From NCBI GenBank assembly GCA_964406005.1, contig CAYOPZ010000005.1:5370-69369 (forward strand): DNA of 64,000 nt, read 5' to 3'. Each line of letters starts with the position of its first letter. Within the stretch, counting starts at the first letter, position 1. The DNA comes from an uncultured Bacteroidaceae bacterium. GTDB lineage: Bacteria > Bacteroidota > Bacteroidia > Bacteroidales > SM23-62. The notes beneath the pieces were generated by a model. That model was given only the letters and a program-made list of their open reading frames with translations. It did no database searches and was not told where the DNA came from. This document shows positions 1 to 51,368 of the stretch, piece by piece. Made by a program: the position numbers and the translations under genes.

Positions 1-176
1 CATATTACCCGATAGAACAATACAGAAAAAAATGCAGGGAGCTGGGGGCGGATTATTTCTTCGATAAATCAAACGATTTTGAGAAAATGACAGGGACGGT
101 AAAAAAACTGGCAAAAAAAATTAAAAATAATCATAATCCATCCGGCTGGAACAACCGGAATAACAATTATGCATAA
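1..176 (+). CDS. 3' end of a response-regulator receiver (CheY-like) gene, cut by the window edge
   Basis: Frame 3 is open from the window edge to TAA at 174-176. The translated tail ...YRKKCRELGADYFFDKSNDFEKM... resembles the C-terminal end of REC domains. Its stop overlaps the next ATG (ATGCATAA at 169-176). Confidence 0.5.
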   Translation, partial: YYPIEQYRKKCRELGADYFFDKSNDFEKMTGTVKKLAKKIKNNHNPSGWNNRNNNYA

Positions 177-765
177 AGGTAATTTATCTGATTTACCCGA
201 TCATTTTCTGGTCTTTGCAATTGACCGGAATTTCTTCGCAATACCGGTAAAAATGGTTAAAAGGATTATTCCTTCGATAATAATAACCAGGGTGCCCGGT
301 TTTCAGGAACATATTCTCGGGGTGGTTAATGTTTTAGGCGAGGCCGTACCTGTTTTCAATATCAGGAAAATCTTCAAGCTTCCCGCAAAAGATACTGAGC
401 TGACCGATTTGTTTATTCTTTTGACCGTATCGGGACAAACCATATCGTTTGCGGCCGATTCCGTTCAGGGAATCATGAACCGGACAGACCGGAAAATGAT
501 TCCCGCCGGGGAAGTAGCTCCCGGACTGGAAAAGATCCTCGAAGGACTGATATTCCTGGATGACGGTATGATCCTGATCTATGACCCCGGGAAGCTGTTC
601 GTCTATGACAATATGATAAAGATAGATATCAAAAAGCTGGGGCAAACGATGAGGGGTTTGCAGGAATCCGGGAAAAAAAGAGCTGCCAGGGCAAAAAAAC
701 CGGCGGGCCGGAAGACCAGCAAGCCATTAACCGATAAACCAACAGGACCGGTCAAGAAGAATTAA
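169..765 (+). CDS. cheW: CheW-like coupling protein with a basic Lys/Pro-rich C-terminal tail
   Basis: 198-aa ORF with CheW-type segments (FLVFAIDRNFFAIPVKMVKRIIP, VPGFQEHILGVVNVLGEAVPVFNIRKIF). The last ~40 aa (KKRAARAKKPAGRKTSKPLTDKPTGPVKKN) are basic and low complexity. Confidence 0.85.
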   Translation: MHKGNLSDLPDHFLVFAIDRNFFAIPVKMVKRIIPSIIITRVPGFQEHILGVVNVLGEAVPVFNIRKIFKLPAKDTELTDLFILLTVSGQTISFAADSVQGIMNRTDRKMIPAGEVAPGLEKILEGLIFLDDGMILIYDPGKLFVYDNMIKIDIKKLGQTMRGLQESGKKRAARAKKPAGRKTSKPLTDKPTGPVKKN

Positions 766-780
766 ACCCGGGGAATAAGA

Positions 781-2328
781 ATGGTAAAAAGAACATCCGA
801 TAGCAAGAAAATTTCTGCTGATCTGCTTGCCCGCTTTGGCAATTTCATCTCACGGAACCTCGGTTTGTATTTTCCGGAAAACCGTCAGGAAGACCTGTAT
901 GAAAAATGTACCCTTGCAGCAAGGGAATTCGGTTTCGGTAATCCTGAAGACTGTATTCGCCGGCTGTTGTCGGCACCACTGGATCAGGAGCAGATTGAAA
1001 TTCTGTCTTCATATCTGACCATTGGAGAAACACATTTTTACAGGGATAAATCAATTTATGAAAGTCTTGAAAAATATGTCCTTCCTGAACTGTTAGCCAG
1101 GCGAAGAGAACAGGGGAAATACATGAGAATCTGGAGCGCAGGCTGTTCGTCGGGCGAAGAACCCTATTCAGTAGCCATTCTGCTGGCCAGCCTGATAACC
1201 GACATTGAAAACTGGAACATTTCAATTCTTGCAACCGATATCAGTCAAAAGGCCCTGGATAAAGCCAAAAAGGGAATTTACGGGAAGTGGTCCTTCAGGA
1301 GCACGCCGGAATGGGTGAAGGATGAGTATTTTATAAAAAGCCGGAAGGATTCCTATACCATCAGGCCTTTTATTAAGGATATGGTTTCCTTTTCCTATCA
1401 CAACCTGGCCAAAGACCCGTTTCCATCACTGGTCAACAACACATCGGCAATAGATATCGTATTCTGCAGGAATGTGATCATGTATTTTCATCCCGGGCTG
1501 GCACGAAAAATCATCAACCTGTTCTACCGGTCACTTATTGGTGGAGGATGGCTCGTCGTAAGTGGAAGCGAAGGTCATATGGTACATAAATCACGGTTTG
1601 TAACCGTTGCCCTGCCGGACACGATCTTCTTCAGAAAAGACCTGTTAAAATCAAGCGCAACAGAAACCCTGGGAACAACCGAAAAACAAGAAACAACAGA
1701 AACAGAGGTTCTCCATGATCCCGGTTCTGTGTTCAGTGAGGCTGACATTTCACAGGCCAACGGTGTGAAATGTTCTGGCAACTACGATACACAGGAAATC
1801 CAGGCTGTCCCGGAAACAACAACCGACCCGGTTAAAAAAGCCGCTGTGCTGTATGAGCAGGGCAGCTACCGGGAAGCGGAAAGTATCATGGCGGAATACC
1901 TGTCCGGGGATCCGGACAATTCCGGAGCAATAATCCTGCTTGCTAAAATCTTTTCAAACCAGGGAAAATTCATTGAGGCAACAGAATTAATTAGGAAGGG
2001 AATTGAGATTGATAAATGCAACCAGGAATATTACTATCTGCTTGCGCTCATTAATATTGAACAGGGCAGAACGGAGGAAGCAAAATCCGCTCTTCAACGT
2101 TCTATATATATCGATGATCATTCTGTACTCTCACATTATGCCCTGGGGAATATTTTTATGCAGCAGGGCAAAACAAAGCATGCCGAAAAACATTTCAGTA
2201 ATGCCATTTCCATACTGGACAAGTATGACAGAGACAATATCATCGGAGGATCGGACGGTTTGACAGCCGGCAGGTTAACCGAAATAATCAAAATAAAAAA
2301 CCTGGCTTCCCGGGAAAGAATTGTATAA
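781..2328 (+). CDS. cheR: CheR-type MCP methyltransferase with C-terminal TPR repeats
   Basis: 515 aa with CheR motifs ETHFYRD, IWSAGCSSGEEPYS and FCRNVIMYF. A Thr/Glu-rich linker is followed by TPR-like repeats (AAVLYEQGSYREAE, LLAKIFSNQGKFIEA, ALGNIFMQQGKTKHAEKHF). Confidence 0.9.
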   Translation: MVKRTSDSKKISADLLARFGNFISRNLGLYFPENRQEDLYEKCTLAAREFGFGNPEDCIRRLLSAPLDQEQIEILSSYLTIGETHFYRDKSIYESLEKYVLPELLARRREQGKYMRIWSAGCSSGEEPYSVAILLASLITDIENWNISILATDISQKALDKAKKGIYGKWSFRSTPEWVKDEYFIKSRKDSYTIRPFIKDMVSFSYHNLAKDPFPSLVNNTSAIDIVFCRNVIMYFHPGLARKIINLFYRSLIGGGWLVVSGSEGHMVHKSRFVTVALPDTIFFRKDLLKSSATETLGTTEKQETTETEVLHDPGSVFSEADISQANGVKCSGNYDTQEIQAVPETTTDPVKKAAVLYEQGSYREAESIMAEYLSGDPDNSGAIILLAKIFSNQGKFIEATELIRKGIEIDKCNQEYYYLLALINIEQGRTEEAKSALQRSIYIDDHSVLSHYALGNIFMQQGKTKHAEKHFSNAISILDKYDRDNIIGGSDGLTAGRLTEIIKIKNLASRERIV

Positions 2329-2344
2329 ATAAAATCAATATAGA

Positions 2345-2980
2345 ATGGAAGTAAAAGCAGACAGGTCAAAAGAAGGACAGCCATCGTCCATCGACTGGAA
2401 GGAGATTCATTCGCGCCTGGAGGCCGTCCGGGAAAAACTTGAACAGGAACGGTATTTATCTGAGACCGAGAAGGAACAAATCATAAGGGAAAGAACCAGG
2501 AAACTCGGTAAGGCATCACCGGATGAACCATCCTCTTCAACGGAATACCTGAAGGTGACAGAGTTTGTGCTGTCCGATGAAAAATACGGGATAGAGCTGG
2601 ATGCGATCAGCGAGGTTATTTCATTGAAAGACCTGACTCCATTGCCCTGTACCCCGCCTTTTATAACGGGCGTCATGAATATCAGGGGGAAAATAGTAAC
2701 CGTCATTGACATCAGGAAGATGCTCGAGCTGCCTGCCGGAGGCTTAACCGATCTTAACAGGCTAATCATCGTCCATGCGCATGGAATGGAAGCAGGAATA
2801 CTGGCGGATCTCATCTCCGGTGTCAGGCTGATCCGAACAGGCGGCATCCAACCGGCACTGCCGACACTTACAGGAATACGGGCTGAATACATCAAAGGGG
2901 TTACCGGTGACCAGCTGATCATTCTGAATGTCGAAAATATATTTTCCGACGAAAGGATAATTGTAAACGAAATAATTTAA
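2345..2980 (+). CDS. cheW: CheW-like coupling protein (second copy)
   Basis: 211 aa. A charged N-terminal ~70 aa is followed by a CheW domain (KYGIELDAISEVISLKDLTPLPCTPPFITGVMNIRGKIVTVIDIRKML). Confidence 0.88.
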   Translation: MEVKADRSKEGQPSSIDWKEIHSRLEAVREKLEQERYLSETEKEQIIRERTRKLGKASPDEPSSSTEYLKVTEFVLSDEKYGIELDAISEVISLKDLTPLPCTPPFITGVMNIRGKIVTVIDIRKMLELPAGGLTDLNRLIIVHAHGMEAGILADLISGVRLIRTGGIQPALPTLTGIRAEYIKGVTGDQLIILNVENIFSDERIIVNEII

Positions 2981-2992
2981 AAATGCCAAACC

Positions 2993-4723
2993 ATGAAACC
3001 ATCATTTGCGCTTAAAATCGGAGTGTTTTTCGGAGTGATATTGATAATATTGCTCGTCATAGGTAGTATTTCGCTCACAAATATGACAAGGCTCCATGAA
3101 AATGCCGATCTCGTAATCCGTGCCGATGAAATAAAAACGAAGTTAGAGGAGATCACAAGTGCCATTAAAGACGCCGAGACGGCTGAACGCGGCTACATCA
3201 TAACCGGAGAGGAAGAATACCTGGAACCATACAATAATGTTCTTCCCGGGATCTCCAGTTCTGAAAATGATCTCGAGCAGTTGATATCCGATCCCCAACA
3301 GAAACAACGACTTCTCCGGTTCGAATCCCAGGTTACAGAGAAACTTGATTTTCTTGAGGAAGCGATCAACACACGAAGGGATGCCGGTTTTGATGCCGCA
3401 AGAGCCCTGATATTAACGGATATCGGGAAAAACATGATGCAAAATGTCCGCGATACAAAATTGGAAATGATAAATGCAGAGGATCAAATACTCCAGGAAC
3501 GCCAGCTCAGATCCGACCGGAGTGTCAGAACTGCCAGGCTGACCATTGTACTGCTGACAGCGATCAGTATCATAATAGTCGTTTTAATGGTCATTTACCT
3601 GGTTTACAATATCGCCCTGCCGGTCAGGGAAGTTTCAGGCATCGCGGAGAATATCTCCATGGGAGAATTCAACCGCGAAATCAGGAAAACCGGCAGGAAA
3701 GATGAAGTCGGAGTACTCATAAATGCATTTTCACGCATGATTTCCTATTTAAAGGAAATGACCAATACGGCCAACATGATTGCCGAACGTAACCTGGATA
3801 TTGAGATAAAGCCCCTTTCGGAGCGGGATATATTCGGAAATGCATTCAATTCAATGAAAGAAAACCTGAAGGCCCAGGTTCTTGAAATAACCGAAACGGT
3901 AAATGTCCTTACTTCGATGGTCGCGGAAATCATCACCACAACTTCCCAGTTAACGGCCAGTTCCACCGAGACGGTTTCGGCGATAACAGAAACAACCACG
4001 ACCGTGGAGGAAGTCAAACAAACGGCACAGGTTTCCAATGACAAGGCAAAGGCGATTTCGGAAAGCTCCAGAAAAACCCTGCAGGTGGCCAGAGATGGTG
4101 AAAAAGCGGTGAATGAAACCGGTTCAGGTATGAACATGATTAGGGAGAAGATGGAATTCATTGCAGAAAGTATTATGCAATTGAGTGAACAGAGCCAGAC
4201 CATCGGAGAGATCATGAATTCAATAAATGACCTGGCCGAACAGTCCAACCTGCTTGCGGTTAACGCTTCGATCGAAGCTGCCAAGGCAGGTGAGGAAGGA
4301 AAAGGATTTGCAGTGGTGGCAGAGGAAGTTAAAAACCTGGCCGACCAGTCGAAACAGGCAACCAGGCAGGTGCGGGAGATTCTGACCGAAATACAGAAGG
4401 CCACCGGTACAGCGGTTATGGCAACCGAGGAAGGGAGCAAGGTGGTCGAGTCGGGCACCACCCAGGCCGGTGATGCCGGAGCTTCAATCAAAGCGCTGAC
4501 TGAAGTTGTCAACGAAGCAGTGCAGGCTACCACACAGATCGCAGCATCCGTACAGCAACAATTCGTGGGTATCGACCAGGTTACGGAAGCCATCCGCAAC
4601 ATCAGTGTTGCAAGCAACCAGAACCTGGAGAGCACCAAACAGCTGGAAACAGCTTCGGAAAACCTGGAAGGAGTAGCCAGGAAACTTGATGAACTTGTAA
4701 AACAGTACCAACTCGAAGAATGA
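2993..4723 (+). CDS. Methyl-accepting chemotaxis protein, CHASE3-like sensor + HAMP + MCP signalling domain
   Basis: 576 aa with two TM segments flanking a CHASE3-like region (AETAERGYIITGEEEYLEPY). It has a HAMP domain (EVGVLINAFSRMISYL) and the conserved hairpin tip (DLAEQSNLLAVNASIEAAKAGEEGKGFAVVAEEVKNLA). Confidence 0.92.
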   Translation: MKPSFALKIGVFFGVILIILLVIGSISLTNMTRLHENADLVIRADEIKTKLEEITSAIKDAETAERGYIITGEEEYLEPYNNVLPGISSSENDLEQLISDPQQKQRLLRFESQVTEKLDFLEEAINTRRDAGFDAARALILTDIGKNMMQNVRDTKLEMINAEDQILQERQLRSDRSVRTARLTIVLLTAISIIIVVLMVIYLVYNIALPVREVSGIAENISMGEFNREIRKTGRKDEVGVLINAFSRMISYLKEMTNTANMIAERNLDIEIKPLSERDIFGNAFNSMKENLKAQVLEITETVNVLTSMVAEIITTTSQLTASSTETVSAITETTTTVEEVKQTAQVSNDKAKAISESSRKTLQVARDGEKAVNETGSGMNMIREKMEFIAESIMQLSEQSQTIGEIMNSINDLAEQSNLLAVNASIEAAKAGEEGKGFAVVAEEVKNLADQSKQATRQVREILTEIQKATGTAVMATEEGSKVVESGTTQAGDAGASIKALTEVVNEAVQATTQIAASVQQQFVGIDQVTEAIRNISVASNQNLESTKQLETASENLEGVARKLDELVKQYQLEE

Positions 4724-7050
4724 CCAAAAAAGAGGAAGAATTTAAAAAGCGGTTGCTGGAGACTTTCAGGATTGAAGCCGGTGACCACCTGAAAGCGATA
4801 TCATCCGGCCTGATAAAACTGGAAAAAACAGGCAATCAGGATGAGCGGAGAAAATCAACCGAGAATATCTACAGGGAGGCTCACAGTCTGAAAGGAGCAT
4901 CACGTTCTGTAAACATACGCAGTTTTGAATCCATCTGTAATACTTTGGAAAATGTTCTCGGAAGATGGAAGCGTGAAGAGATAACCCCGTCCCGGGATAT
5001 GTTCGATAAAATGCATACCCTGGTCGATTTTATGTCGGAAAAACTCGGTGATCCCCGGCCCGGGGAGATCGTCCTCGAAAATCATGTTTCAGAGATTCTT
5101 TCTCAATCGTATGAAACGGATTCCGGAACCGAAGATATTTCAGGGCCCGGTTCAGGCAAAGGACTTACTGAAAAGGAGAGTAGTGACCAGTCCGGTAAAA
5201 AAGTTAATCAGCCTTCTGAAAAGGAACAACCCCCTGCAGGTGAAGGAAGGATACTGGAAGGAACCGTAAGGATTTCCAGGATGAAACTCGATTCCCTGAT
5301 GATGCAGACCGAAGAGATGCTGTCTGTTAAACTTAAACTGTATCAGCGATTTACCGAACTTCAGGATCTCGGATCCGTTCTCAGTCAATTGAAAAAGGAG
5401 ATCATGGAAATGATCCGGGAAAATCCTAAGGTATTCCAAATCCAGGTGAATGAGACTAAGAACCCGGATCGTGAAAATAATAAAATCAATCCGGGACAAT
5501 CGGAAAAATATGATAAGAGTTCTGAACTCGTCGAATTAATGGAAGCCAAACTCTCGGTTCTTGTTAAATCAGCCGGAGAAGATCACAGGATGGCAGGAAG
5601 GATGATCGATAATATGCTGGAGGAAATGAGGAATATCTTAATGCTCCCCATTTCTTCAATCCTGGAATTGTTCCCGGGACTGGTCCGCAATCTCTCCAGG
5701 GAGCAGGGCAAGAATGTGGAACTGGAAATGCAGGGAGCTGAGAATGAAGTCGACAGACGGGTCCTTGAAGAGATAAAAGATCCGCTTATCCACCTGGTAC
5801 GGAATTGTATCGATCACGGAATTGAAAAACCCGAAGAAAGAATCAAGAATGGTAAACCTTCATCCGGAAAAATTACCATCAAGGTATCACAATTGCCGGG
5901 GAACAAGGTTGAAATTCTTGTATCCGACGACGGGGAAGGGATTGATCTGGCCGGTATTAAAAAGGCGGCAATCAAAAATGAATTGGTTTCAGAGAAGGAT
6001 GATTTAACGGACGATAAACTGGAAACTCTTGTTTATCATTCCGGGATTACAACCAGTCCCATCCTTACGGATCTTTCCGGCAGGGGACTCGGACTCGCCA
6101 TTGTCAAGGAGAAAGTCGAATCGCTCGGAGGAACCGTCTCCGTCAGGTCCCAACACCTTAAAGGAACAGCCTTTACCATGCAGATACCGCTTACACTTGC
6201 AACATACAGGGGCATCTTCATCGAGGTGGACGGTGCCGTGTTTGTCGTACCCGCTGCCAATGTCGAACGGATCCTGAGAATTAACAGGAGTGACATAAAA
6301 ATGGTCGAAAACAGGGAGACCGTTTCAATGAACGGCAATACCCTTTCCTATGTAAATCTCGGTGACATTCTTGAAACAGCGGGAAGTAACCGTGAAGAAC
6401 CGGAGGTAAAGGACAAAACACCTAACCGGGACGTTCAGAACATACTCATTATGGGAGCAGGAAACAACAGGATCGCTTTTGGTATTGACAGGATTATCAA
6501 TGAGCAGGAAATCCTTGTTAAACATCTTTCAAAACCGCTGGCCCGGGTCAGGAATACAGGTGGTGTGACCATCCTGGGCTCAGGAAGGGTCGTTCCGATC
6601 CTGAACATTTCAGACATTATGAAATCAGCAGTCACCGGGCCTTCTGTAAGTACCGGATCCGCTTCTGAAAAGAAAGCGGAAGAAAAGCAAAGATCCGCCC
6701 TGGTTGCAGAAGATTCCATCACATCCAGGATGCTCCTCAGGGATATCCTCGAATCGGCCGGATTCTTTGTCAAAACAGCCGTTGACGGTGCCGAGGCACT
6801 GTCGCTCCTGCGTGAAGGCGAATTCGATATCCTTGTGTCAGATATCGATATGCCCAGGATGAACGGCTTCGAGCTTACTTTAAAAGTGCGTGCCGATAAA
6901 AAGCTCGGTGAATTGCCGGTCGTCCTTGTAACTGCCCTGAAATCACGCGAAGACCGTGAACACGGAATGGAGGTCGGAGCAAATGCCTATATCGAAAAAG
7001 GCAGTTTTGATCCGCAGCAGCTCCTGGAAGTCATAAACAGGCTCGTGTAA
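4720..7050 (+). CDS. cheA: CheA-type histidine kinase fused to a C-terminal receiver (WspE-like CheA::REC)
   Basis: 776 aa. Domains: HPt (YREAHSLKGASRS), HATPase (IHLVRNCIDHGIE, SDDGEGID, GRGLGLAIV), CheW-like P5 (FIEVDGAVFVVPAANVERIL) and REC (LVAEDSITSR, ILVSDIDMPRMNG). The ATGA start overlaps the MCP stop. Confidence 0.92.
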   Translation: MTKKEEEFKKRLLETFRIEAGDHLKAISSGLIKLEKTGNQDERRKSTENIYREAHSLKGASRSVNIRSFESICNTLENVLGRWKREEITPSRDMFDKMHTLVDFMSEKLGDPRPGEIVLENHVSEILSQSYETDSGTEDISGPGSGKGLTEKESSDQSGKKVNQPSEKEQPPAGEGRILEGTVRISRMKLDSLMMQTEEMLSVKLKLYQRFTELQDLGSVLSQLKKEIMEMIRENPKVFQIQVNETKNPDRENNKINPGQSEKYDKSSELVELMEAKLSVLVKSAGEDHRMAGRMIDNMLEEMRNILMLPISSILELFPGLVRNLSREQGKNVELEMQGAENEVDRRVLEEIKDPLIHLVRNCIDHGIEKPEERIKNGKPSSGKITIKVSQLPGNKVEILVSDDGEGIDLAGIKKAAIKNELVSEKDDLTDDKLETLVYHSGITTSPILTDLSGRGLGLAIVKEKVESLGGTVSVRSQHLKGTAFTMQIPLTLATYRGIFIEVDGAVFVVPAANVERILRINRSDIKMVENRETVSMNGNTLSYVNLGDILETAGSNREEPEVKDKTPNRDVQNILIMGAGNNRIAFGIDRIINEQEILVKHLSKPLARVRNTGGVTILGSGRVVPILNISDIMKSAVTGPSVSTGSASEKKAEEKQRSALVAEDSITSRMLLRDILESAGFFVKTAVDGAEALSLLREGEFDILVSDIDMPRMNGFELTLKVRADKKLGELPVVLVTALKSREDREHGMEVGANAYIEKGSFDPQQLLEVINRLV

Positions 7051-7092
7051 AGGATATTTTGATACAACCCCGGAAAATCAATAAAAACGGCA

Positions 7093-8175
7093 ATGACCGA
7101 GTTTAAAAAAGTAAGAGTTCTCGTTGTCGACGATTCACCGTCGGTTCTCGACCTGTTGACCTACATTCTGAATTCCGACCCCGGAATAGAAGTGATCGGG
7201 ACAGCCCTGACCGGCAAAAGAGCGTTGAAATTTCTTGAGACAACAGCTCCCGACGTTATTACGATGGATATGGAAATGCCTGAGATGGACGGACTGAAAA
7301 CCACGCGCATCATTATGGAAACCAATCCTGTTCCGATTATCATCGTATCGGCTTCCTGGTCCCCGTCAGAAGTTACCGATACCCTCAGGGCCATGGAAGC
7401 AGGTGCCGTTGCCATTCTGGAAAAGCCGCGGGGTATCGGCCATCCGGAGCACAACAGGATGGCCATCGAACTTGTCAATACAGTCAAAAACCTGTCACAG
7501 GTAAAACTCGTCAGGCGATGGCCAAAAATAAGGCAGATCAGGGAAAAGGCCCTTCCTGTGCTTCCTGACTTAGAAAAAGACAGGGAAGAGATCAGGATTG
7601 TCGCTATAGGTTCTTCAACCGGTGGTCCTGTTGCCCTGCAGGCCATACTGTCGGAACTTCCCGAAAATCTTCCGGTCCCCGTACTGATCGTGCAGCATAT
7701 TGCAGCGGGTTTCCTTAATGGATTGAAGGAATGGCTTAACAGATCGACAGGGAAAAAGGTCACTGTCGCATCAGACAGGGAGAAATTATTACCCGGACAT
7801 TATTACCTGGCGCCAAATAATTTCCAGATGGGAATTCAAAATTCCGGAATGATAAAACTGTCTGATTCCGATCCGTTGACAGTTCACTGCCCCTCTGTTT
7901 CATTTCTTTTCCGGTCTGTTGCCGAAACATACGGTAAACATGCAATCGGGGTTTTATTAACGGGCATGGGCAAAGACGGAGCCGGTGAACTCAGGATGAT
8001 GAGAAACAAGGGAGCCGTGACCATTGCACAGGATGAAGCTACCTCGGTCATCTGGGGAATGCCCGGGGAAGCTGTCAGGCTGGGGGGAGCAAAATATATT
8101 TTACCGCCTGTGGCAATTGCCCGTATAATAGCAAAACGGCTGAAAGGAAGTAACAAAGGTCCTGAGCACAGATAA
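7093..8175 (+). CDS. cheB: CheB-type protein-glutamate methylesterase (REC + esterase)
   Basis: 360 aa. REC motifs (VLVVDDSPSV, VITMDMEMPEMDG) plus the methylesterase triad contexts GSSTGGP, VQHI and GMGKDGA. Confidence 0.92.
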   Translation: MTEFKKVRVLVVDDSPSVLDLLTYILNSDPGIEVIGTALTGKRALKFLETTAPDVITMDMEMPEMDGLKTTRIIMETNPVPIIIVSASWSPSEVTDTLRAMEAGAVAILEKPRGIGHPEHNRMAIELVNTVKNLSQVKLVRRWPKIRQIREKALPVLPDLEKDREEIRIVAIGSSTGGPVALQAILSELPENLPVPVLIVQHIAAGFLNGLKEWLNRSTGKKVTVASDREKLLPGHYYLAPNNFQMGIQNSGMIKLSDSDPLTVHCPSVSFLFRSVAETYGKHAIGVLLTGMGKDGAGELRMMRNKGAVTIAQDEATSVIWGMPGEAVRLGGAKYILPPVAIARIIAKRLKGSNKGPEHR

Positions 8176-8187
8176 AAACGATGGTGC

Positions 8188-11100
8188 ATGGGAAAGAACA
8201 ACAACACATCCATTGTCATTGCCGAAGACAGCCATACTCAGGCCGAACAGCTCAGGTTCCTCCTCGAGGAACAGGGGTACACCGTTTTTTGCGGTAAAGA
8301 CGGATCGGAGGCACTGGATATGATAAAAATTCATCATCCGACCCTGGTCATCAGTGATATTCTTATGCCGGAACTGGATGGATACCAGTTATGCAGGAAA
8401 ATTAAAAAGGATCCCGTGCTGAAAAAAATACCGGTCGTACTCCTGACCGTATTATCACATCCAAGGGACATTATAAAGGGATTGGAATGCGGCGCAGACA
8501 ACTTCATAACAAAACCCTATAAAAACGAACATCTTTTATCATTGCTGCACAGGATCATTTCGAATATCCAGCTGAGGCAGGAAACAAAAACGGAGCCCGG
8601 GCTTAAAGTAAATTTTAATAAAAAGACTTACCATATTGATGCAGGCCGTGTACAGATACTCGATACGCTTTTATCCAGTATTGAACATTCAACCGGTGAA
8701 AATGAGAAGTTAAGGCAGTCAAACAAGCATCTGGAAAAAACACGGGAAGAACTGAAACGATCAAATCAGAACCTGGAGAAAGAGGTTGAAAAGCGAACGA
8801 AAAAGATCAAGCGGCTGAATTCACTGCTTACTGCGATAAGGAAAATAGATCAATTGATCGTTAAAGAAAAAAATCCGGGAATCCTGCTTCAAACCGCATG
8901 TGAGCAATTGGTGAGCATCAGGGATTATTATTATGCAGTGTATTTATACCTGGATAAGGACGGGAAAATATTATTTACGGGATATTCCGGTGTGGAAGAT
9001 CATTCTGAAAAATTCTCGGATTACCTTGATAAAGGTATGTTGCCTGCCTGCTGTGAAAAGGCAATGAACCGGGCCGGCGAGCTCACCGAAGGTAAAATAC
9101 AAGATCTGGTGGTCACCGAAGATCATAAGCGGGAATGCGGCGATTGTCCGTTGATTCCTGAAGAAAAAGGACTAAAATCAATAACCATCCCCCTGAAACA
9201 CAATGACCGGTACCTGGGTCTTCTCGTGATACTTGTACCGTTCCGGATATCTTCGATCATGGAAGAGATTGATCTTCTGGAAGGAGCAGCCAACGACCTG
9301 GCTTTTGCGCTTGCCGACATCGAACTCCAGGCTGAAAATAAGAAGGTCAACCGTGAACTGGTCAAAATGGCCCACGACCTGAACAAACGCGTAAAAGAAC
9401 TGAATTGTATTCACGGGATTGAAGAAGCAATGACACTACCCGGCATATCAATCAATGAGATTTTTAATGAGACCATACACCTGATACGGCAGACCTGGCA
9501 ATTCCCGGAATTAACGGCATGCAGGATTGAATACAATGGTGAGACTTTTCAATCGGAGAATTACAGGGAAACAGAACGGTCTTTGAAAACCGACCTGATT
9601 GTCCATGGTAAGAAGAAAGGTCTTCTTGAGGTCTGCTATATTGAAGATATCAATGATCATCCGGGGGATCCGTTTGTCGAAGAGGAGATGCACCTGCATA
9701 GAAATATCGGAAGGCAGCTCGAAAAATTCATTCAGAGAAAAGATACCGAAGAGAGATTAAAGGAACAACATAAACTGTTGTACCAACTCATCAATTCGTC
9801 ACCCGACCTGGTTTCCCTAAAGGACCGGAACGGACGGTATATAATGAATAATACAGCATTCAACAGGATCACAGGACTGAATGACCGGGAAACGACAACC
9901 GGCGAAACGGATTTTGACCTGTTCCCGGAAGAATATGCGGGCCGTTATCTTGAAGAAGACAGAAGGGTACTGGAGAAAGGGAAACCGGACTTAAACCGTG
10001 AAGAGATGATCCCTGACAGGAAAGGAAATGAACGATGGTTCCTGACATCCAGGATACCACTGAAGGATGAATCCGGAAAGATCAGCGGAATAATCAACGT
10101 GAGCCGTGATATTACCGAACGTAAGAAAAATCTTGAGGAATTGAAGCAGGCAAGAGAAAGAGCGGTGAAGGCAGATCAACTGAAAACAGCTTTCCTGATG
10201 AACATGTCCCACGAGGTCAGAACACCGATGAATGCAATAATCGGATTCGCAGACCTGCTTTTAAGTCCATCCGTGTTAAAACAGGATAAGGATTCGTTCC
10301 TGGAGATGATCAAGGAAAACAGCATGCGATTGCTCCGGCTTTTAAATGATATCCTGGATATTTCAAGGATCGAAACCGGGTCGGTTGAAATAATACCGAA
10401 GGCGTTCTCACTACGGAAGCTGGTTATGGACCTTCATAAGGATTTTAATGATCAGAAGATCAGGATGGGAAAAGAAAACGTGAAAATCAGCATTTCGGAA
10501 AAATGCAGTCATCATGATTATCGCATTATAACAGATCCTGAAAGGTTAAAACAAATTATCTCCAATCTGGTGGAAAATGCATTGAAGTTTACCGAATCCG
10601 GATTTATAGAAATGGGCTATGAAATGGTTCAATCGAAATCACCCGGTGAAAAACAATCGGATGCATTAAAACAAAAATTCCTGTGTTTCAGCATTAAGGA
10701 TACAGGGATCGGTATTGACAAGGACAGCCTTGATTTCATTTTTGACCGTTTCAGCAAGGTGGAGAGTAAAATGAAAATATATGACGGTACCGGCCTGGGG
10801 CTGGCGATTTCAAAGGACCTGGTGAAACTCCTTGGTGGTGAAATATGGGTGGAATCCGAACCCGGGAAAGGTTCTGAATTCTTTTTTACAATTCCATTCA
10901 AGGAAGCACGGGGTGAAAAAGAAATCATAACCAGATCAGGAACAGGCATGAGAAAGATCGACTGGAAAAGCAAACTGATCCTGGTTGCCGAGGATGAGGA
11001 AAGCAATTTTGCCCTTCTGAAATTCAACCTGCGCAGGACAGGTGCACAATTGCTCTGGGCCAGGAATGGAAATGAGGCTGTTGACGTCTGCCGTTCAAAT

Positions 11101-11334
11101 AAGGCAATAGACCTGGTTCTGATGGATATTAAAATGCCCGGATTGGATGGATTGCAGGCAGCCAGACTGATCAGGAAAAACAGGAAGGACCTTCCCGTCA
11201 TTGCAGTATCTGCCTTCTCAGCAGAAGAAGATATAAAATCATCAAGGGAGGCAGGCTGTGATGAATTTGTATCAAAACCGATCAATATGGAGGAACTTTA
11301 TAAGAAGATGAATTATTGTCTGGAAAGAAGTTGA
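8188..11334 (+). CDS. Hybrid sensor kinase: REC - conserved linker - coiled coil - Cys-bearing GAF-like - second sensor module - PAS - HisKA - HATPase - REC
   Basis: 1048 aa. N-terminal REC (IVIAEDSHTQAE, LVISDILMPELDG), H-box FLMNMSHEVRTPMNAIIGF, N/G boxes (NLVENALKFT, KDTGIGI, GTGLGLAIS) and C-terminal REC (ILVAEDEESN, LVLMDIKMPGLDG). Starts 12 bp after the cheB stop. Confidence 0.9.
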   Translation: MGKNNNTSIVIAEDSHTQAEQLRFLLEEQGYTVFCGKDGSEALDMIKIHHPTLVISDILMPELDGYQLCRKIKKDPVLKKIPVVLLTVLSHPRDIIKGLECGADNFITKPYKNEHLLSLLHRIISNIQLRQETKTEPGLKVNFNKKTYHIDAGRVQILDTLLSSIEHSTGENEKLRQSNKHLEKTREELKRSNQNLEKEVEKRTKKIKRLNSLLTAIRKIDQLIVKEKNPGILLQTACEQLVSIRDYYYAVYLYLDKDGKILFTGYSGVEDHSEKFSDYLDKGMLPACCEKAMNRAGELTEGKIQDLVVTEDHKRECGDCPLIPEEKGLKSITIPLKHNDRYLGLLVILVPFRISSIMEEIDLLEGAANDLAFALADIELQAENKKVNRELVKMAHDLNKRVKELNCIHGIEEAMTLPGISINEIFNETIHLIRQTWQFPELTACRIEYNGETFQSENYRETERSLKTDLIVHGKKKGLLEVCYIEDINDHPGDPFVEEEMHLHRNIGRQLEKFIQRKDTEERLKEQHKLLYQLINSSPDLVSLKDRNGRYIMNNTAFNRITGLNDRETTTGETDFDLFPEEYAGRYLEEDRRVLEKGKPDLNREEMIPDRKGNERWFLTSRIPLKDESGKISGIINVSRDITERKKNLEELKQARERAVKADQLKTAFLMNMSHEVRTPMNAIIGFADLLLSPSVLKQDKDSFLEMIKENSMRLLRLLNDILDISRIETGSVEIIPKAFSLRKLVMDLHKDFNDQKIRMGKENVKISISEKCSHHDYRIITDPERLKQIISNLVENALKFTESGFIEMGYEMVQSKSPGEKQSDALKQKFLCFSIKDTGIGIDKDSLDFIFDRFSKVESKMKIYDGTGLGLAISKDLVKLLGGEIWVESEPGKGSEFFFTIPFKEARGEKEIITRSGTGMRKIDWKSKLILVAEDEESNFALLKFNLRRTGAQLLWARNGNEAVDVCRSNKAIDLVLMDIKMPGLDGLQAARLIRKNRKDLPVIAVSAFSAEEDIKSSREAGCDEFVSKPINMEELYKKMNYCLERS

Positions 11335-11348
11335 CAGATTTTCACAGG

Positions 11349-13526
11349 ATGCAAAGGAACAAAGGAAATAAACTGATCGTGATTGCGGAAGACAGTCTTA
11401 CGCAGGCAGAAAAAATCAGGTATACTCTTGAGAACAAAGGGTTCAGGGTGGCTTGCGGAAAAAATGGCAGGGATGCCTTAAGGATTATTGAAGAAAAAGT
11501 TCCCGACCTGGTTATCTCGGATATAATCATGCCTGAAATGGATGGCTTTGAATTATGCAGGAGCATCAAAACAAAAAGCCGTCTGCAAGGAATTCCGGTT
11601 ATCCTTCTGACATCACTGGCACATACGGAAGACGTGCTGAAAGGTCTGGAGAGCGGTGCCGATAATTATATCATCAAGCCTTTCAGTGATGAACAACTTG
11701 TTACGCGCATAGAGACCATTCTTTCAGATGATGAAAATGCAGGAAAGGAGAAAAGGATACAGGAGCAAATCGACATTCTGTTCGAAGGGAAAAAGTACCT
11801 CCTGAATTCAACCAAAATCCAGATCCTCAACATGCTGCTTACGACCTACGAGGGAGCCGTACAAAAAACCAGGAAACTGGAGGAAACCCAGTCTGTACTG
11901 AATGAACTGCGAAACTCACTGGAAAGCAAAATCAGTGAAAAGACCAGGGATCTGCATCGGAAAATTCAGGAAAGGCAATCCATAGAATCTGCCATAAGGG
12001 AATCCGAGAAAAAGTATCGCAACCTTGTGGAGAATGCCATTACCGGAGTATTCAGCCTGACCCTGGAGGGGCAGATTGTGTTTGTCAACGAGGCAATGTT
12101 AAACCTCCTGGGTAAGGATCCGGGAACAAAGACGGAAAATCATTCCATACGATCATTCTTCAAACAAACTGCTGAATTTGAAAAATTCCTGGAGCTGATC
12201 AGGAAGCAGGGCCGGATTGTCGATTTTGAATCGGAGCTTGTGACAATAAAGGGTGAATCAAAAAGTGTGATCATCAATGCACGCCTGAAAGAAGACGGTA
12301 TTTCAGGCATTCTGCTGGACATTACGGAACGGAAAAAAATAATCGAACAGGAACAGAAATATCAGGCAGAATTAAAGACTGCAAAAGAGATGGCTGAGGA
12401 ATCGGATCGCCTTAAAACAGCATTTTTATCCAATATGTCCCACGAAATCAGGACTCCGCTCAATGCAATATCGGGATTTTCATGCCTGTTGTCCGATCCT
12501 CATCTGAGGAGAGAAAACAAAGAAGACTATATTGAACGCATTACCGATGGTTGCGATACCCTGCTAAACCTTGTAAACAACATCCTTGATCTGGCTAAAC
12601 TGGAAGCAGGAATAATAAAGCTTAACAAAAGAAAATGCAGGCTGAATAAACTGCTCGAGACGATTTATTCACTCCATTTAAGGTCAAGGGAGAAAATTGA
12701 AAGAAGCTCCCTTTCCTTCAAACTGTCGAAAGCAAATTCCGATGAAGACTTTACAATACTGGCAGATACCGACAGAATATTGCAGGTATTGTCAAATCTG
12801 CTTGATAATGCATTCAAATTTACCGAAAACGGATCGATTGATTTCGGATATGAAATTAAAGACGACCGGTTAATGTTTTTTGTCCGGGATACCGGACCGG
12901 GCATAAATGCCCAGCAGAAGAAAATAATTTTCGAACGTTTCAGAAAAGCAGAGGAAACAGAGACAAAACTGTACGGGGGAGCAGGACTGGGCCTGGCAAT
13001 ATGCAAAAAACTTGTTGAATTGATGGAAGGCGAAATAAGGGTGGAATCCGAACCCGGCCGGGGAACCTCATTCTCTTTCACAATACCCTTTATACCTGCA
13101 GCGGTTGAAAAAGAAACCGGAAAAAAGGAAGAAGCACCTGCTTCCAGACGATCCCTGAAAGGCAGGAAAGTACTTGTTGCTGAAGACAACCAGTTGAATT
13201 ATAATTTAATTGAAGCATTCCTGGCGGGGACCGACCTGGATGTTGTCTGGGTTAAGAACGGAAAGGAAGCCCTGGATTATTGCAAATCACCCGCTGATGC
13301 GGACATGATACTGATGGACCTGCGTATGCCGGTGATGGATGGATTTCAGGCGACAGAGCAAATAAGAAGCTTTAATGAGGACATCCCGGTTGTAGCCGTA
13401 ACTGCATATACCATCAGGGAAGAACAGGAAAAAGCGGAAAGCCTGGGATTTACGGATTACCTTACAAAACCGGTCAACCGGGAGATATTGCTGCAAACAA
13501 TACACAAATATATTTACAGTGGATAA
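11349..13526 (+). CDS. Hybrid sensor kinase: REC - conserved linker - PAS - HisKA - HATPase - REC (paralog 2)
   Basis: The ORF track starts at 11316. I prefer ATG 11349 (MQRNKGNKLIVIAEDS) because it matches the N-termini of the two paralogs. H-box FLSNMSHEIRTPLNAISGF, G boxes RDTGPGI and GAGLGLAIC, C-terminal REC (VLVAEDNQLN, MILMDLRMPVMDG). Confidence 0.9.
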   Translation: MQRNKGNKLIVIAEDSLTQAEKIRYTLENKGFRVACGKNGRDALRIIEEKVPDLVISDIIMPEMDGFELCRSIKTKSRLQGIPVILLTSLAHTEDVLKGLESGADNYIIKPFSDEQLVTRIETILSDDENAGKEKRIQEQIDILFEGKKYLLNSTKIQILNMLLTTYEGAVQKTRKLEETQSVLNELRNSLESKISEKTRDLHRKIQERQSIESAIRESEKKYRNLVENAITGVFSLTLEGQIVFVNEAMLNLLGKDPGTKTENHSIRSFFKQTAEFEKFLELIRKQGRIVDFESELVTIKGESKSVIINARLKEDGISGILLDITERKKIIEQEQKYQAELKTAKEMAEESDRLKTAFLSNMSHEIRTPLNAISGFSCLLSDPHLRRENKEDYIERITDGCDTLLNLVNNILDLAKLEAGIIKLNKRKCRLNKLLETIYSLHLRSREKIERSSLSFKLSKANSDEDFTILADTDRILQVLSNLLDNAFKFTENGSIDFGYEIKDDRLMFFVRDTGPGINAQQKKIIFERFRKAEETETKLYGGAGLGLAICKKLVELMEGEIRVESEPGRGTSFSFTIPFIPAAVEKETGKKEEAPASRRSLKGRKVLVAEDNQLNYNLIEAFLAGTDLDVVWVKNGKEALDYCKSPADADMILMDLRMPVMDGFQATEQIRSFNEDIPVVAVTAYTIREEQEKAESLGFTDYLTKPVNREILLQTIHKYIYSG

Positions 13527-14477
13527 ATGAAGAAACAGATCAGGAAAGAAAGCTCAGGCAACGGAAATTTCCGGAAGCTGTTGGACGAAAAACAAACGGA
13601 GATCAGGAAATTGACCGAAGAAATCAATCATCAGCAGGAAGCCATCGAATCACAGAAAGAGGTGATTGAAACACAACGTGATGTGGCCATTAAACAAAGG
13701 GATGAAATTATATTTCAGAAAAAGGAGATCACCTCCAGTATCAGATATGCGGAACGTATTCAGAAGGCATTGCTGCCGACAGATGAAGTATTTGCAGGGT
13801 CTTTTAAGGATCATTTCATTATGTACAGGCCAAGGGATATTGTCAGCGGGGATTTTTACTGGATAACAAATAAAGGCGGCAGGATCATTCTGGCCGCTGC
13901 AGATTGTACGGGACACGGAGTCCCGGGTGGCTTTATGAGTATCATGGGCATATCATTTTTAAATGAGATCGTTGAAAACCTTGGAATTATCCAACCCGGG
14001 GAAGTCCTGAATGAAATAAGAGACAAGGTGATCCACACATTCAGCCGGGCGGGGAAGAAAGCAGAAGCAATGGATGGTATGGATATCGCTGTTATCTCAT
14101 ATGAACCCCGGGATCAGGTCCTGCAGTATGCAGGTGCATTAAACCCGGTGTTTGTAATCAGGGACGGAGCCATTCATGAACTGACCGCAGACAGGATGCC
14201 TGTCGGATATTATTCCGGTACGGTCATACCGTTTGCCAATATTGAAATGGCGATACAGCCTGATGACTCGGTCTATTTGTTTTCAGACGGATATGTAGAC
14301 CAGTTCGGCTGGAGGACCGATACAAAATATAAAATGAAGAATTTTAGACGTCTGTTGCTGGATATTCAACAGGTACCAATGAGGGCGCAGAAGGTTCTGC
14401 TGGAAAATGAGCTCGATAACTGGAAGGGAGAAATGGAACAGCTGGATGACATCATGGTTATCGGGTTACAGATCTGA
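13527..14477 (+). CDS. PP2C/SpoIIE-family serine phosphatase with N-terminal coiled coil
   Basis: 316 aa. The ATG directly abuts the upstream TAA (13524-13526). A heptad-like N-terminus (LTEEINHQQEAIESQKEVIETQRDVAIKQRDEIIFQKKE) precedes RsbU/SpoIIE-type motifs (YAERIQKALLP, SGDFYW, ADCTGHGVPGGFMS, LFSDGYVDQ, DDIMVIGL). Confidence 0.88.
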   Translation: MKKQIRKESSGNGNFRKLLDEKQTEIRKLTEEINHQQEAIESQKEVIETQRDVAIKQRDEIIFQKKEITSSIRYAERIQKALLPTDEVFAGSFKDHFIMYRPRDIVSGDFYWITNKGGRIILAAADCTGHGVPGGFMSIMGISFLNEIVENLGIIQPGEVLNEIRDKVIHTFSRAGKKAEAMDGMDIAVISYEPRDQVLQYAGALNPVFVIRDGAIHELTADRMPVGYYSGTVIPFANIEMAIQPDDSVYLFSDGYVDQFGWRTDTKYKMKNFRRLLLDIQQVPMRAQKVLLENELDNWKGEMEQLDDIMVIGLQI

Positions 14478-14501
14478 ACTGCACCGGCCTTTTATAAAAG
14501 A

Positions 14502-16691: not shown

Positions 16692-16873
16692 ACAGGAGTT
16701 CAATACAAGCCGTTGCCGGTGGAAATCTGTTAAAAACGGTTCTACCTTCAGGATATTTTCCGGATTGATCTTAATCGCCCTTCCATTTAAACCATCCCGG
16801 GAAGGGGGAAATTACCAGTAAATTTATTAACTTCAGGTTTCAGTGGCTTTTGCCGGGTTAACTTTACATTGAC

Positions 16874-17500
16874 ATGTCGACAATTCTCATTATAGATGAT
16901 CACCCTGTTGTAAGAAGAGGATTGCGGGAAATACTTGAAGAATTGTCCGTTGATATCCGGATAATTGAAGCCGGTACGGCAATTGACGGGTTACGAATAA
17001 TCAGGGAATCGGATATTGATATTGTTTTACTGGATATTAATCTTCCCGGCAGAAGCGGTCTTGATATGCTGAAAGATATAAGAAAGATCAAGGCAGAAAC
17101 CAAGGTTCTGATAATCAGTATGTATCCGGTGGACCAATACGCAGTCCGTGCACTTAAATCCGGTGCAAAGGGATATGTTACCAAGGAAAGTGCACCCGAT
17201 GAATTGCTTGCTGCGGTCGACAGGATACTGAAGGGAGGAAGATACATTACACAATCCATAGCTGAGCATATAGTCGATAATCTTGAGAGTAAAGGCCCCC
17301 TGCACCGTTCTCTTTCAGACAGGGAGTTTGAGGTAATGATCCACCTGGCAAAAGGAAAAAGCATCAGGGTAATTGCCGAAACACTGGCATTGAGTGAAAA
17401 AACCGTCAGTACCTACCGCAAGAGAATTCTTGAGAAAATGCAAATGCATTCAAATGTTGAACTCGCCAGGTATGCCCTGCAGTATAAACTCATTGAATAG
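16874..17500 (+). CDS. NarL/FixJ(LuxR)-family response regulator
   Basis: 208 aa. REC (ILIIDDHPVVRRGL, IVLLDINLPGRSG) plus a LuxR-type HTH (LSDREFEVMIHLAKGKSIRVIAETLALSEKTVSTYRKRILEKM). Confidence 0.92.
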   Translation: MSTILIIDDHPVVRRGLREILEELSVDIRIIEAGTAIDGLRIIRESDIDIVLLDINLPGRSGLDMLKDIRKIKAETKVLIISMYPVDQYAVRALKSGAKGYVTKESAPDELLAAVDRILKGGRYITQSIAEHIVDNLESKGPLHRSLSDREFEVMIHLAKGKSIRVIAETLALSEKTVSTYRKRILEKMQMHSNVELARYALQYKLIE

Positions 17501-23067: not shown

Positions 23068-23679
23068 ATGTGTGAAAAAAACAATCATGTAAATCTGGGA
23101 TTTACTTCAGAAAAGTTTCCGGCAGGTACTCACATGTGCTTAATCTATAACAATGAAGATGAAAGAGCAAAGATAATATCACAATTTCTTGAATCAGGTG
23201 TAAATAAAGAAGAAAAGGTATCATATTTTGCATATTCAATGAATAAGGCAGAAATGATCAATTGGCTTGATGAGCAAGGAGTTACAATATCGGAAACTGA
23301 TATTGATGTTTTAAATACAAGTGCCGTATACTGTCCTTCCGGAAAATTTGTTCCTGAGGTTATGCTTGATAATTTGAAAAGCTTTTATAATAGCTCAATC
23401 GAAAACGGTTACCGGGCTTCACGGGTGAGCGGTGAAATGATATGGGCCTTGGATAACATACCTGGCTCAAACAGACTAATGGAGTATGAAGCATTGGTGA
23501 ACCAGGTATTGGAAACCCATCCTGTAACGGCAATTTGCCAGTATGATGCAACTAAATTTGATGGAGCAACCATTCTGGATTGTTTGAAAGTGCATCCTTA
23601 TATGATCGTTGGGAGACAAATAGTGAAAAATCCTTATTTCCTGGATCCTCAGGAATACCTGGAAGAGATAAATTCATAG
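23068..23679 (+). CDS. MEDS-domain (DcmR-like sensory) protein
   Basis: 203 aa. The MEDS-like pattern is HMCLIYNNEDERAKIISQFLESG ... SGEMIWAL ... TAICQYD. Lies in an AT-rich segment. Confidence 0.65.
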   Translation: MCEKNNHVNLGFTSEKFPAGTHMCLIYNNEDERAKIISQFLESGVNKEEKVSYFAYSMNKAEMINWLDEQGVTISETDIDVLNTSAVYCPSGKFVPEVMLDNLKSFYNSSIENGYRASRVSGEMIWALDNIPGSNRLMEYEALVNQVLETHPVTAICQYDATKFDGATILDCLKVHPYMIVGRQIVKNPYFLDPQEYLEEINS

Positions 23680-23681
23680 AG

Positions 23682-35993: not shown

Positions 35994-36003
35994 GATTCCC
36001 GGT

Positions 36004-37831: not shown

Positions 37832-37846
37832 AAGTTTCGTATAACT

Positions 37847-49094: not shown

Positions 49095-49137
49095 GATTTA
49101 TACTCTATAATTTATTTAGCAAAAATCATTCCAGTAA

Positions 49138-49803: not shown

Positions 49804-49805
49804 GA

Positions 49806-50444: not shown

Positions 50445-50490
50445 ATTATCAGATCAATTTAACTTAATTCTGATCCTTGACAAAACCAGG

Positions 50491-51312: not shown

Positions 51313-51368
51313 TTTTCAATGATTTGGTTTAGATAAAGAAATGATTTGCAATATTAATTCGTCAGGAT

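Follow-up and report, generated by a model that had tools for sequence, protein, structure and literature searches.

The stretch analyzed here, called the window, is a 64-kb segment (64,000 nucleotides) of contig CAYOPZ010000005.1 from an uncultured Bacteroidaceae bacterium; the analysis covered these 64 kb of the genome. The window opens with a chemosensory (Che) gene cluster. Open reading frame (ORF) prediction and Pfam searches placed a core of seven features at 3-8175, all on the plus strand and at the coordinates given by a first-pass annotation made from the sequence: the tail of a receiver (REC) domain, CheW1, CheR with a TPR region (CheR-TPR), CheW2, a methyl-accepting chemotaxis protein (MCP) with CHASE3 and HAMP domains, CheA with a fused receiver (CheA-REC) and CheB (Table 1). 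Seven Che genes in a row at such E-values are not a chance arrangement. The two overlaps that had been claimed, ATGCATAA at 169-176 (stop of the REC tail and start of CheW1) and ATGA at 4720-4723 (MCP and CheA), were confirmed in the sequence, and the remaining core gaps of 15, 16, 12 and 42 bp lie in the claimed range of 12-42 bp. Behind CheB come three hybrid histidine kinases (HK1-HK3), a PP2C phosphatase between HK2 and HK3, and a NarL/LuxR-type regulator.

Table 1 Features of the window
Feature	Position	Strand	Description
REC tail	3-176	+	Last 57 residues of a receiver, frame 3; stop TAA at 174-176; cut by the window edge
CheW1	169-765	+	Pfam CheW (E = 4e-22, residues 13-144); basic Lys/Arg/Pro-rich C-terminal tail
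CheR-TPR	781-2328	+	Pfam CheR (E = 1.2e-52, residues 83-276); several TPR families (residues 350-480)
CheW2	2345-2980	+	Pfam CheW (E = 4.2e-28, residues 73-203); N-terminal extension of 70 residues
MCP	2993-4723	+	Pfam CHASE3 (E = 9e-33), HAMP (E = 5e-8), MCPsignal (E = 3e-37)
CheA-REC	4720-7050	+	776 aa; Pfam Hpt, HATPase_c, CheW (P5-like), Response_reg
CheB	7093-8175	+	N-terminal REC and CheB_methylest (E = 1.6e-58) (Pfam)
HK1	8188-11334	+	1048 aa; pathway receiver (REC and extension), GAF, PAS, HisKA, HATPase, REC (Pfam)
HK2	11316-13526	+	736 aa; pathway receiver, PAS, HisKA, HATPase, REC; start TTG 11316 or ATG 11349
PP2C	13527-14477	+	316 aa; SpoIIE-family Ser/Thr phosphatase (Pfam SpoIIE, E = 2e-18)
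HK3	14502-16691	+	729 aa; pathway receiver, PAS, HisKA, HATPase, REC (Pfam)
NarL/LuxR-type regulator (REC-GerE)	16874-17500	+	Pfam REC (E = 1e-28), GerE (E = 3e-18)
MEDS ORF and hybrid kinase ORF	23068-25400		MEDS ORF, 203 aa; TTG-started HisKA-HATPase-REC ORF, 606 aa
Iron-uptake block	34563-38509	-	FeoB in two ORFs, DtxR-FeoA-FeoA, DtxR-type repressor
ExbB-ExbD-ExbD-TonB block	48312-54549	-	Next genes: PBP-like protein; large TPR protein with CarboxypepD_reg
E1 dehydrogenase	60834-63302		Fused; housekeeping

The first-pass annotation had taken the core as one operon ending at 8175. The single, tightly packed unit stood up, whereas its end did not: equally tight spacing persists downstream, with 12 bp between CheB and HK1, HK1 and HK2 overlapping (or 14 bp apart if HK2 starts at its ATG), 0 bp between HK2 and PP2C, and 24 bp between PP2C and HK3, and the unit therefore extends past 8175, to at least 16691. 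It probably also includes the LuxR-type gene, 182 bp beyond HK3. A scan for sigma-70 promoters and terminators returned no usable operon boundary, with counts close to those in shuffled sequence and with Bacteroidota promoters outside its coverage, and tRNA and Rfam scans of the window returned nothing. We favor, at somewhat better than even confidence, a reading of 3-17500 as a 12-gene operon of a non-flagellar chemosensory pathway of the class for alternative cellular functions (ACF) from an uncultured Bacteroidales.

The conservation of the cluster was assessed through CheA, which has 5207 relatives at E <= 1e-20; among the matches listed, all share the same four domains. The nearest relatives form one clade (51-65% identity), all named members of which (51-58%) are "Bacteroidales bacterium" metagenome-assembled genomes. 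Seven independent loci of this clade, with CheA 51-60% identical to that of the window, were compared (L007/L008, L009, L013, L095, L096, L097 and L098; L numbers denote related loci). The CheB-HK1-HK2-PP2C-HK3 block is present in all seven, with PP2C between HK2 and HK3 throughout. Where contigs extend, the order is receiver, CheW, CheR-TPR, CheW, MCP(s), CheA-REC, CheB, HK1, HK2, PP2C and HK3, and both of the loci that reach upstream show CheW-CheR-CheW-MCP. HK1, HK2 and HK3 each best match their own counterpart across loci (the best matches of HK1 are the HK1 genes of five other loci; full-length identity is 48-53% for HK2, and HK3 is 53-62% identical to its counterparts), and the kinase triplication is therefore old and predates the clade. 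The sensor of the MCP varies: CHASE3 in the window and L007 gives way to HBM in L013, and another relative has dCache.

This conservation bears on an alternative in which the kinases, PP2C and the LuxR-type regulator constitute an independent two-component network beside the Che core, with CheA signaling to its own receiver, CheB and the upstream receiver only. Bacteroidota are rich in hybrid kinases that often cluster, as with the MEDS and kinase-REC pair further along the window, and the connection of the kinases to CheA is itself read from sequence. We nevertheless judge such independence improbable, given gaps of 0-24 bp from CheB through HK3, a block kept in seven loci over 51-60% CheA identity, and kinase N-terminal receivers belonging to a group that follows CheB across phyla whatever the output.

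That group was identified in the wider CheA family. Full-length CheA-REC proteins at about 46-48% identity number in the thousands outside the Bacteroidales clade and are encoded in Deltaproteobacteria, Acidobacteria, Latescibacteria, Gammaproteobacteria, ANME-2 archaea and others. Eighty metagenome loci with CheA relatives of 31-53% identity were annotated by hidden Markov models made from the domains of the window and validated on loci of known Pfam content. CheW-CheR-CheW-MCP stands ahead of CheA in 20 of the 35 assessable loci, and the first gene after CheB (53 assessable loci) is of the REC-kinase type in 33, a cyclic diguanylate (c-di-GMP) enzyme in 6 and a REC-PP2C in 2. An MCP between cheW2 and cheA, together with a kinase output, is the rule in this CheA family. 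The gene content had been equated with wspB-C-D-A-E-F with the MCP relocated; the composition is indeed the same, but the order is no peculiarity and extends to Gammaproteobacteria, in which one metagenome-assembled genome combines the same MCP order with a REC-GAF-GAF-GGDEF-EAL output. To call the arrangement unusual was an overstatement. Che genes had been reported before in an uncultured Bacteroidales metagenome-assembled genome, where they were assigned to motility (PMC6275135). Outputs with several kinases are found beyond Bacteroidales too, for example in L038, L068 and L080. In the distant relative L012 (12387-16136), CheB is fused to REC-GAF-PAS-HisKA-HATPase-REC in a protein of 1249 aa that corresponds to the HK1 architecture joined to CheB, either a true fusion or a missed stop codon. 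The family is mobile, because a related ACF-type cluster (L099) is carried by the Alteromonas macleodii plasmid pMIT1002 (103 kb; NZ_OX359242.1 72039-94557) beside IS66 and integrase genes; its host, a cultured marine bacterium, offers a genetically tractable setting for this CheA family.

An all-versus-all comparison of 284 receiver domains from related loci then distinguished a pathway receiver. In non-Bacteroidales loci, the gene that follows CheB encodes an N-terminal receiver to which those of HK1-3 have median identities of 49-58%, regardless of whether the fused output is a kinase (n = 36), a GGDEF/EAL protein (n = 7-9) or a PP2C (n = 2); the HK1 receiver shows medians of 55-58% to the post-CheB receivers of distant loci. 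Between the window and non-Bacteroidales loci, the corresponding medians are 67% for the receiver of CheA itself, 53% for that of CheB and 44% for that of REC-GerE, and every other receiver pairing falls at 27-39%. The C-terminal receivers of HK1-3 lie outside the pathway-receiver group, in which the N-terminal ones are found. In each of the nine receiver domains that are complete, the acidic pair, D57, T/S87 and K109 are retained. A post-CheB receiver that is kept with the Che core while outputs are swapped is what would be expected of the cognate target of CheA. By sequence and by analogy to phosphorylation of CheS3 by CheA3 in Rhodospirillum centenum, CheA most likely phosphorylates the N-terminal receivers of HK1-3.

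The shared module continues for ~60 residues past the receiver and then into a coiled coil, with the motif ..I.F.G..h.i....QIlnLLlStYE.Aiqkn.EL. It is encoded at 8188-8730, 11349-11900 and 14502-15050 of the window and was also found in L011, L030, L037, L041, L054, L059, L072 and L089. An AlphaFold model of the module (mean predicted local distance difference test score 85.5) consists of the receiver, a beta-hairpin and a long helix, and the best PDB match, a receiver from a Syntrophus histidine kinase, is 42% identical. Pfam recognized no family in the ~60-residue extension, with no match to Trans_reg_C and only coiled-coil noise. We also considered the extension as a vestigial OmpR-type winged helix. 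The NCBIfam PhoB and YycF profiles align over ~200 residues of HK1, tblastn matches to OmpR-family regulators span the extension, and Foldseek aligned 140-156 columns of the module to PrrA, MtrA and RpaA, but with high root-mean-square deviation; the missing Trans_reg_C match and the model, which shows only the beta-hairpin and the long helix there, speak against it, and the evidence is divided.

The phosphatase is built differently from the kinases. PP2C comprises a 75-residue coiled-coil linker and the catalytic domain, with receiver and sensor domains absent, and its counterparts in L007, L013 and L095 carry a PAS-like segment (~110 residues) ahead of the PP2C. The nearest solved structure is 6K4E (E = 3.5e-33, a match that includes the preceding linker), which is the PP2C domain of SiaA (PMC7647112). 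SiaA is also the sole NCBIfam match, at 179 bits, far under the equivalog cut-off of 700, and covering profile positions 350-656 only. Coiled-coil linkers are known to control PPM phosphatases (PMC12143880). No STAS, SiaC, SiaB or Hpt partner was found among annotated and unannotated ORFs or in intergenic gaps of the window. Relatives of PP2C at >=50% identity, that is, of at least 50%, occurred only in this gene context in every case examined, and below 50% identity the matches are generic Bacteroidota SpoIIE phosphatases with other N-terminal domains. The PP2C lineage is tied to the pathway receiver, because L072 encodes a REC-PP2C in which a phosphatase part 40% identical to that of the window is fused directly to this receiver. 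On these sequence relationships, we read PP2C as a putative second branch of the output, one whose receiver has been lost in Bacteroidales.

A rearranged system was noted around one relative of PP2C (P0298; JGI 3300072015, a 96-kb contig). One strand carries its Che core and, beside cheW at the usual place of the single-domain receiver, a gene with weak SpoIIAA (STAS) similarity whose product is a possible PP2C substrate. The divergent side encodes a HATPase protein, a PAS-HisKA_3 kinase, REC-GerE, PP2C, a REC-PAS-GAF-kinase-REC protein, a kinase-REC protein and two single receivers.

The LuxR-type regulator of the window is 65% identical to a REC-GerE protein encoded upstream of the L008 cluster. 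REC-GerE genes adjoin five further related clusters (L016, L034, L066, L068 and L070), the receivers of which show a median identity of 44% (up to 48%). The regulator is the probable transcriptional end point of the pathway.

In the Che core, the MCP is laid out as TM1, an extracytoplasmic CHASE3 sensor, TM2, HAMP, a second HAMP-like segment and the signaling domain; hydrophobic segments at residues 1-34 and 177-214 flank CHASE3, and a C-terminal pentapeptide is absent. The receptor belongs to the 40H heptad class, because it has two symmetric insertions of 14 residues relative to Tsr (36H) and 142 residues beyond the hairpin-tip residue E434. The heptad check that had been proposed for the MCP thus gave the class of WspA-type receptors: 40H, which is not exclusive to ACF systems, is also the class of a WspA orthologue (PMC11253619). 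The receiver fused to CheA keeps E-D, D57, T87 and K109, and CheB clears the NCBIfam CheB subfamily cut-off (351 versus 342 bits). The REC tail aligns with the alpha4-beta5-alpha5 part of receivers, with the conserved Lys kept, and is 50% identical to the C-terminus of a 148-aa single-domain REC (L013) and 43% to that of a 119-aa REC (L008), both of which sit at or near the same position upstream of CheW1. It is probably, by this similarity, the end of a single-domain CheY-like receiver; in the L008 receiver, the acidic pocket is degenerate, with D-K instead of D-D.

The basic tail of CheW1, singled out at first pass as unusual, was borne out. The last 48 residues (about residues 151-198; window 619-765) contain 16 Lys+Arg, 3 Asp+Glu and 4 Pro. 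Basic tails are also present in L007 (270-1046) and L096 (146-862), each with 26 Lys+Arg per 73-75 residues; the tail is short in L013 (5036-5536), and there is none in L011/L012. Across the Bacteroidales clade, the basic low-complexity character is kept and the sequence is not, while proteobacterial-type relatives have no tail. Such a tail might bind membrane or nucleic acid.

CheR-TPR, CheA-REC and two CheW, which had been put forward as an alternative-function signature, are published ACF hallmarks (PMC3447774). Clusters with CheR-TPR also encode multidomain receivers fused to a histidine kinase, phosphatase, PAS, GAF, extra REC or HTH domain (PMC3447774), and the window has three REC-PAS/GAF-HisKA-HATPase-REC proteins after CheB. 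By all proxies examined (CheA-REC, CheR-TPR, two CheW, a 40H MCP and multidomain receivers), the locus fits the ACF class, the class being judged by such proxies with definitions taken second-hand from PMC3447774 and PMC9239204. ACF surveys list Archaea, Chloroflexi, Cyanobacteria and Proteobacteria, and the main text of PMC3447774 does not contain "Bacteroidetes", whereas the window is from Bacteroidales. These assignments leave ordinary flagellar chemotaxis of a motile Bacteroidales lineage a scarcely credible explanation. A complete Che core set is present, and the Che genes of the Bacteroidales metagenome-assembled genome mentioned above were so interpreted (PMC6275135); yet flagellar classes almost never have the CheA-REC, CheR-TPR and multidomain receivers that typify ACF (PMC3447774), and neither CheZ, CheC, CheD and CheV nor flagellar genes were found by Pfam among the large ORFs of the 64 kb. 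Pfam scans likewise returned no pilus or gliding genes in the window, which is too small to judge a non-flagellar lifestyle. The locus also cautions against inferring motility from che genes when these are met in metagenome-assembled genomes of Bacteroidales.

A signaling route can be proposed from these parts. The receptor would set the activity of CheA, and CheA~P would hand its phosphate on to the three hybrid kinases at their N-terminal pathway receivers, as happens from CheA3 to CheS3 and from WspE to WspR. Phosphorylation of this receiver would turn the kinases on or off, with PAS and GAF domains adding cytoplasmic inputs, while CheR-TPR and CheB provide methylation-based adaptation and the receiver of CheA itself could serve as a phosphate sink. 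The kinases may then phosphorylate one or both of two proteins, the upstream single-domain receiver and the LuxR-type regulator, leading to a change in transcription. As a second branch, PP2C would dephosphorylate a phospho-Ser/Thr partner-switch protein encoded elsewhere, under control exerted via its coiled-coil linker. The full model, an ACF pathway in which CheA signals to three kinases and the pathway ends in gene regulation or a switch of lifestyle instead of motor reversal or direct c-di-GMP synthesis, is the one we consider reasonably probable, though well short of secure. The controlled function, left open at first pass, is thus narrowed: it is not WspR-like, with no GGDEF or EAL in the window, and the system resembles Che3 of R. 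centenum.

Several points weigh against this model. All of the proposed pathway links are drawn from synteny and orthology. The window contains no separate Hpt protein that would serve onward transfer from the C-terminal receivers of the kinases. PP2C is without a receiver, the window encodes neither a STAS/SiaC-like substrate nor a SiaB-like kinase, and the link of PP2C to the pathway is positional. The position of the LuxR-type gene differs between loci, and the gene is absent from some, such as L009. Finally, the ACF class was assigned by proxies rather than by MiST class models.

A more specific scenario is tentative and, in our estimate, doubtful. Flagella-less Bacteroidales may keep a methylation-adapting array as the front end of a three-kinase circuit that acts through the receiver-less PP2C and the LuxR-type regulator on a partner-switch or developmental program, such as dormancy, aggregation or a stress state, with the CheW1 tail anchoring the array to the membrane or nucleoid. 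If true, this would be a lineage-specific ACF rewiring with three parallel CheA targets, not yet described experimentally.

Irrespective of that scenario, the locus is an uncharacterized addition to a widespread and already cataloged ACF class; lineage-specific in it are the three hybrid kinases, the receiver-less SiaA-like PP2C and the LuxR-type regulator, and the basic tail of CheW1 is lineage-typical. Non-motility Che-like pathways are common in genomes, and the few that have been worked out (Wsp, Frz, Che3 and some others) include none from Bacteroidota, which is a key phylum in the ecology of the gut and of sediments. The operon offers a compact, conserved and testable case, with one CHASE3 receptor, one CheA, three candidate targets of the same type and defined end points. 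The pathway-receiver module, fused interchangeably to kinases, c-di-GMP enzymes and PP2C, opens sequence-based prediction of the CheA target in ACF clusters, and this signature is perhaps more useful than the locus itself.

The host contig can be assigned, on sequence grounds, to a Bacteroidales metagenome-assembled genome, because the nearest named relatives of both CheA and the fused E1 dehydrogenase of the same contig are Bacteroidales or Bacteroidota; those of E1, at 77-83% identity, are Bacteroidota, Bacteroides and Bacteroidales metagenome-assembled genomes. The Bacteroidota-type context that had been described was thereby confirmed. The CheA sequence of the window was found identically on an NCBI contig of 112,168 bp and in one Logan assembly, and a genome-contig search with the single CheA protein as query returned no close relative. 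The nearest relative of CheA is 65% identical, whereas E1 has dozens of relatives at 85-87%, a contrast that may reflect a patchy distribution of the cluster or much faster evolution. The rest of the window is typical of Bacteroidota, with a SusC-like TonB-dependent receptor carrying CarboxypepD_reg, DUF5916, DUF4493, ExbB-ExbD-ExbD-TonB and sugar catabolism. In the ExbB block, which is an energy-transduction block of a kind typical of Bacteroidota, ExbB, ExbD, ExbD and TonB are followed by the PBP-like and TPR proteins, all unrelated to the Che operon. In the iron-uptake block, FeoB is split into overlapping ORFs for an N-terminal GTPase and a C-terminal membrane part, followed by a protein that joins a DtxR-like repressor domain to two FeoA domains, and then by a further repressor of the DtxR type. 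The MEDS ORF overlaps the adjacent hybrid kinase ORF by ~100 bp. Two genes may lie here, with a start that is mis-set, or a frameshift may have split a single gene. The G+C content is 38-49% in the signaling half (1-26000) and 46-59% in the metabolic half (26000-64000), and the coding strand of the Che and kinase genes is strongly purine-rich, with an AT skew of up to 0.25. This contrast could reflect gene class or an older acquisition.

Among characterized systems, Wsp of Pseudomonas, compared by composition and order, shares with the window two CheW, CheR-TPR, CheA-REC, CheB, one dedicated 40H MCP and an output receiver gene directly after CheB. The Wsp order is wspA-B-C-D-E-F-R, with the MCP first. 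In the window, by contrast, the MCP gene lies between cheW2 and cheA, the sensor is CHASE3 and kinases stand in the place of the cyclase. The locus is not Wsp proper, because no GGDEF or EAL domain is present in the 64-kb window and the MCP gene is not first. A true Wsp-type pathway, in which c-di-GMP is made by a WspR-like REC-GGDEF protein encoded elsewhere, would agree with the WspB-C-D-A-E-F composition of the core, with the REC-GGDEF(-EAL) proteins found after CheB in some relatives of the CheA family, and with the control of a diguanylate cyclase by a SiaA-type PP2C in P. aeruginosa (PMC7647112). It is very unlikely, however, as GGDEF and EAL are also missing from the gene tables of the seven Bacteroidales-clade loci, the post-CheB position is held by kinases and all three copies of the pathway receiver are kinase-fused. 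A recent transfer of a characterized operon was ruled out as well, the best match in annotated plasmid records being at 31% identity.

Frz of Myxococcus also has CheA-REC, two CheW and CheR-TPR, and one could suppose a system like Frz or that of type IV pili (Tfp) that steers surface motility, by gliding with a type IX secretion system (T9SS) or by pili, via the upstream CheY-like receiver, with the kinases acting only as modulators. The single-domain receiver upstream of CheW1 in the window and its orthologues, the location of a related Sinorhizobium meliloti cluster among Tad pilus genes and a T9SS sorting-domain gene on the contig of a relative are all compatible with this proposal. We regard it as unlikely: gliding, T9SS and pilus genes were not found in the 64-kb window, the partners kept across loci are kinases, a phosphatase and a regulator that binds DNA, and the pocket of the L008 single-domain receiver is degenerate, as noted above. 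The system is not Frz, because its receptor is transmembrane with CHASE3, unlike the cytoplasmic FrzCD, and a FrzZ-like REC-REC protein is absent from the window. The S. meliloti cluster, on a megaplasmid, has the order RR-CheR-CheW-MCP-CheA/REC-CheB (RR, response regulator) with CheA at 31% identity, and the three-kinase and PP2C block is absent. The plasmid pMIT1002 shares with the window the order CheW-CheR-CheW-MCP-CheA/REC-CheB, and a large protein encoded beside its cluster starts with the same pathway-receiver module (42% identity). Its output differs, as the plasmid has a response regulator of the EAL type together with Hpt and REC proteins, and here too the three-kinase and PP2C block is absent.

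For the phosphatase branch, SiaABCD of P. aeruginosa provides the closest comparison: the window PP2C is closest to the phosphatase domain of SiaA but is without the N-terminal sensor of SiaA. SiaA acts in a partner switch on a STAS-like protein, whereas the window has no SiaB, SiaC, SiaD, RsbV or RsbW-like gene. In Bacillus cereus, the RsbK/RsbM/RsbY module likewise joins a CHASE3 sensor and CheR-like methylation to a hybrid kinase and a PP2C (PMC4574943); RsbY has a receiver, which the window PP2C lacks.

For the favored pathway from CheA to three kinases, the Che3 cascade of R. centenum, which controls cyst formation (PMC3868531, PMC4436063), is the most instructive precedent. Experiments on that cascade have shown phosphate passing from CheA3-REC to REC1 of CheS3, a REC-REC-PAS kinase, and CheS3 in turn phosphorylating CheY3 (PMC3868531). 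By parts list, both systems have a single-domain CheY, two CheW, CheR, an MCP, CheA-REC, CheB and a second kinase, which has a receiver at the N-terminus and contains a PAS domain. They differ in phylum and in kinase design: CheS3 is one kinase of the HWE type that carries two receivers at the N-terminus and none at the C-terminus, whereas the window encodes three HisKA-type kinases with one N-terminal and one C-terminal receiver each, plus PP2C and the LuxR-type regulator. By this analogy, the cluster appears to work most like R. centenum Che3 among known systems.

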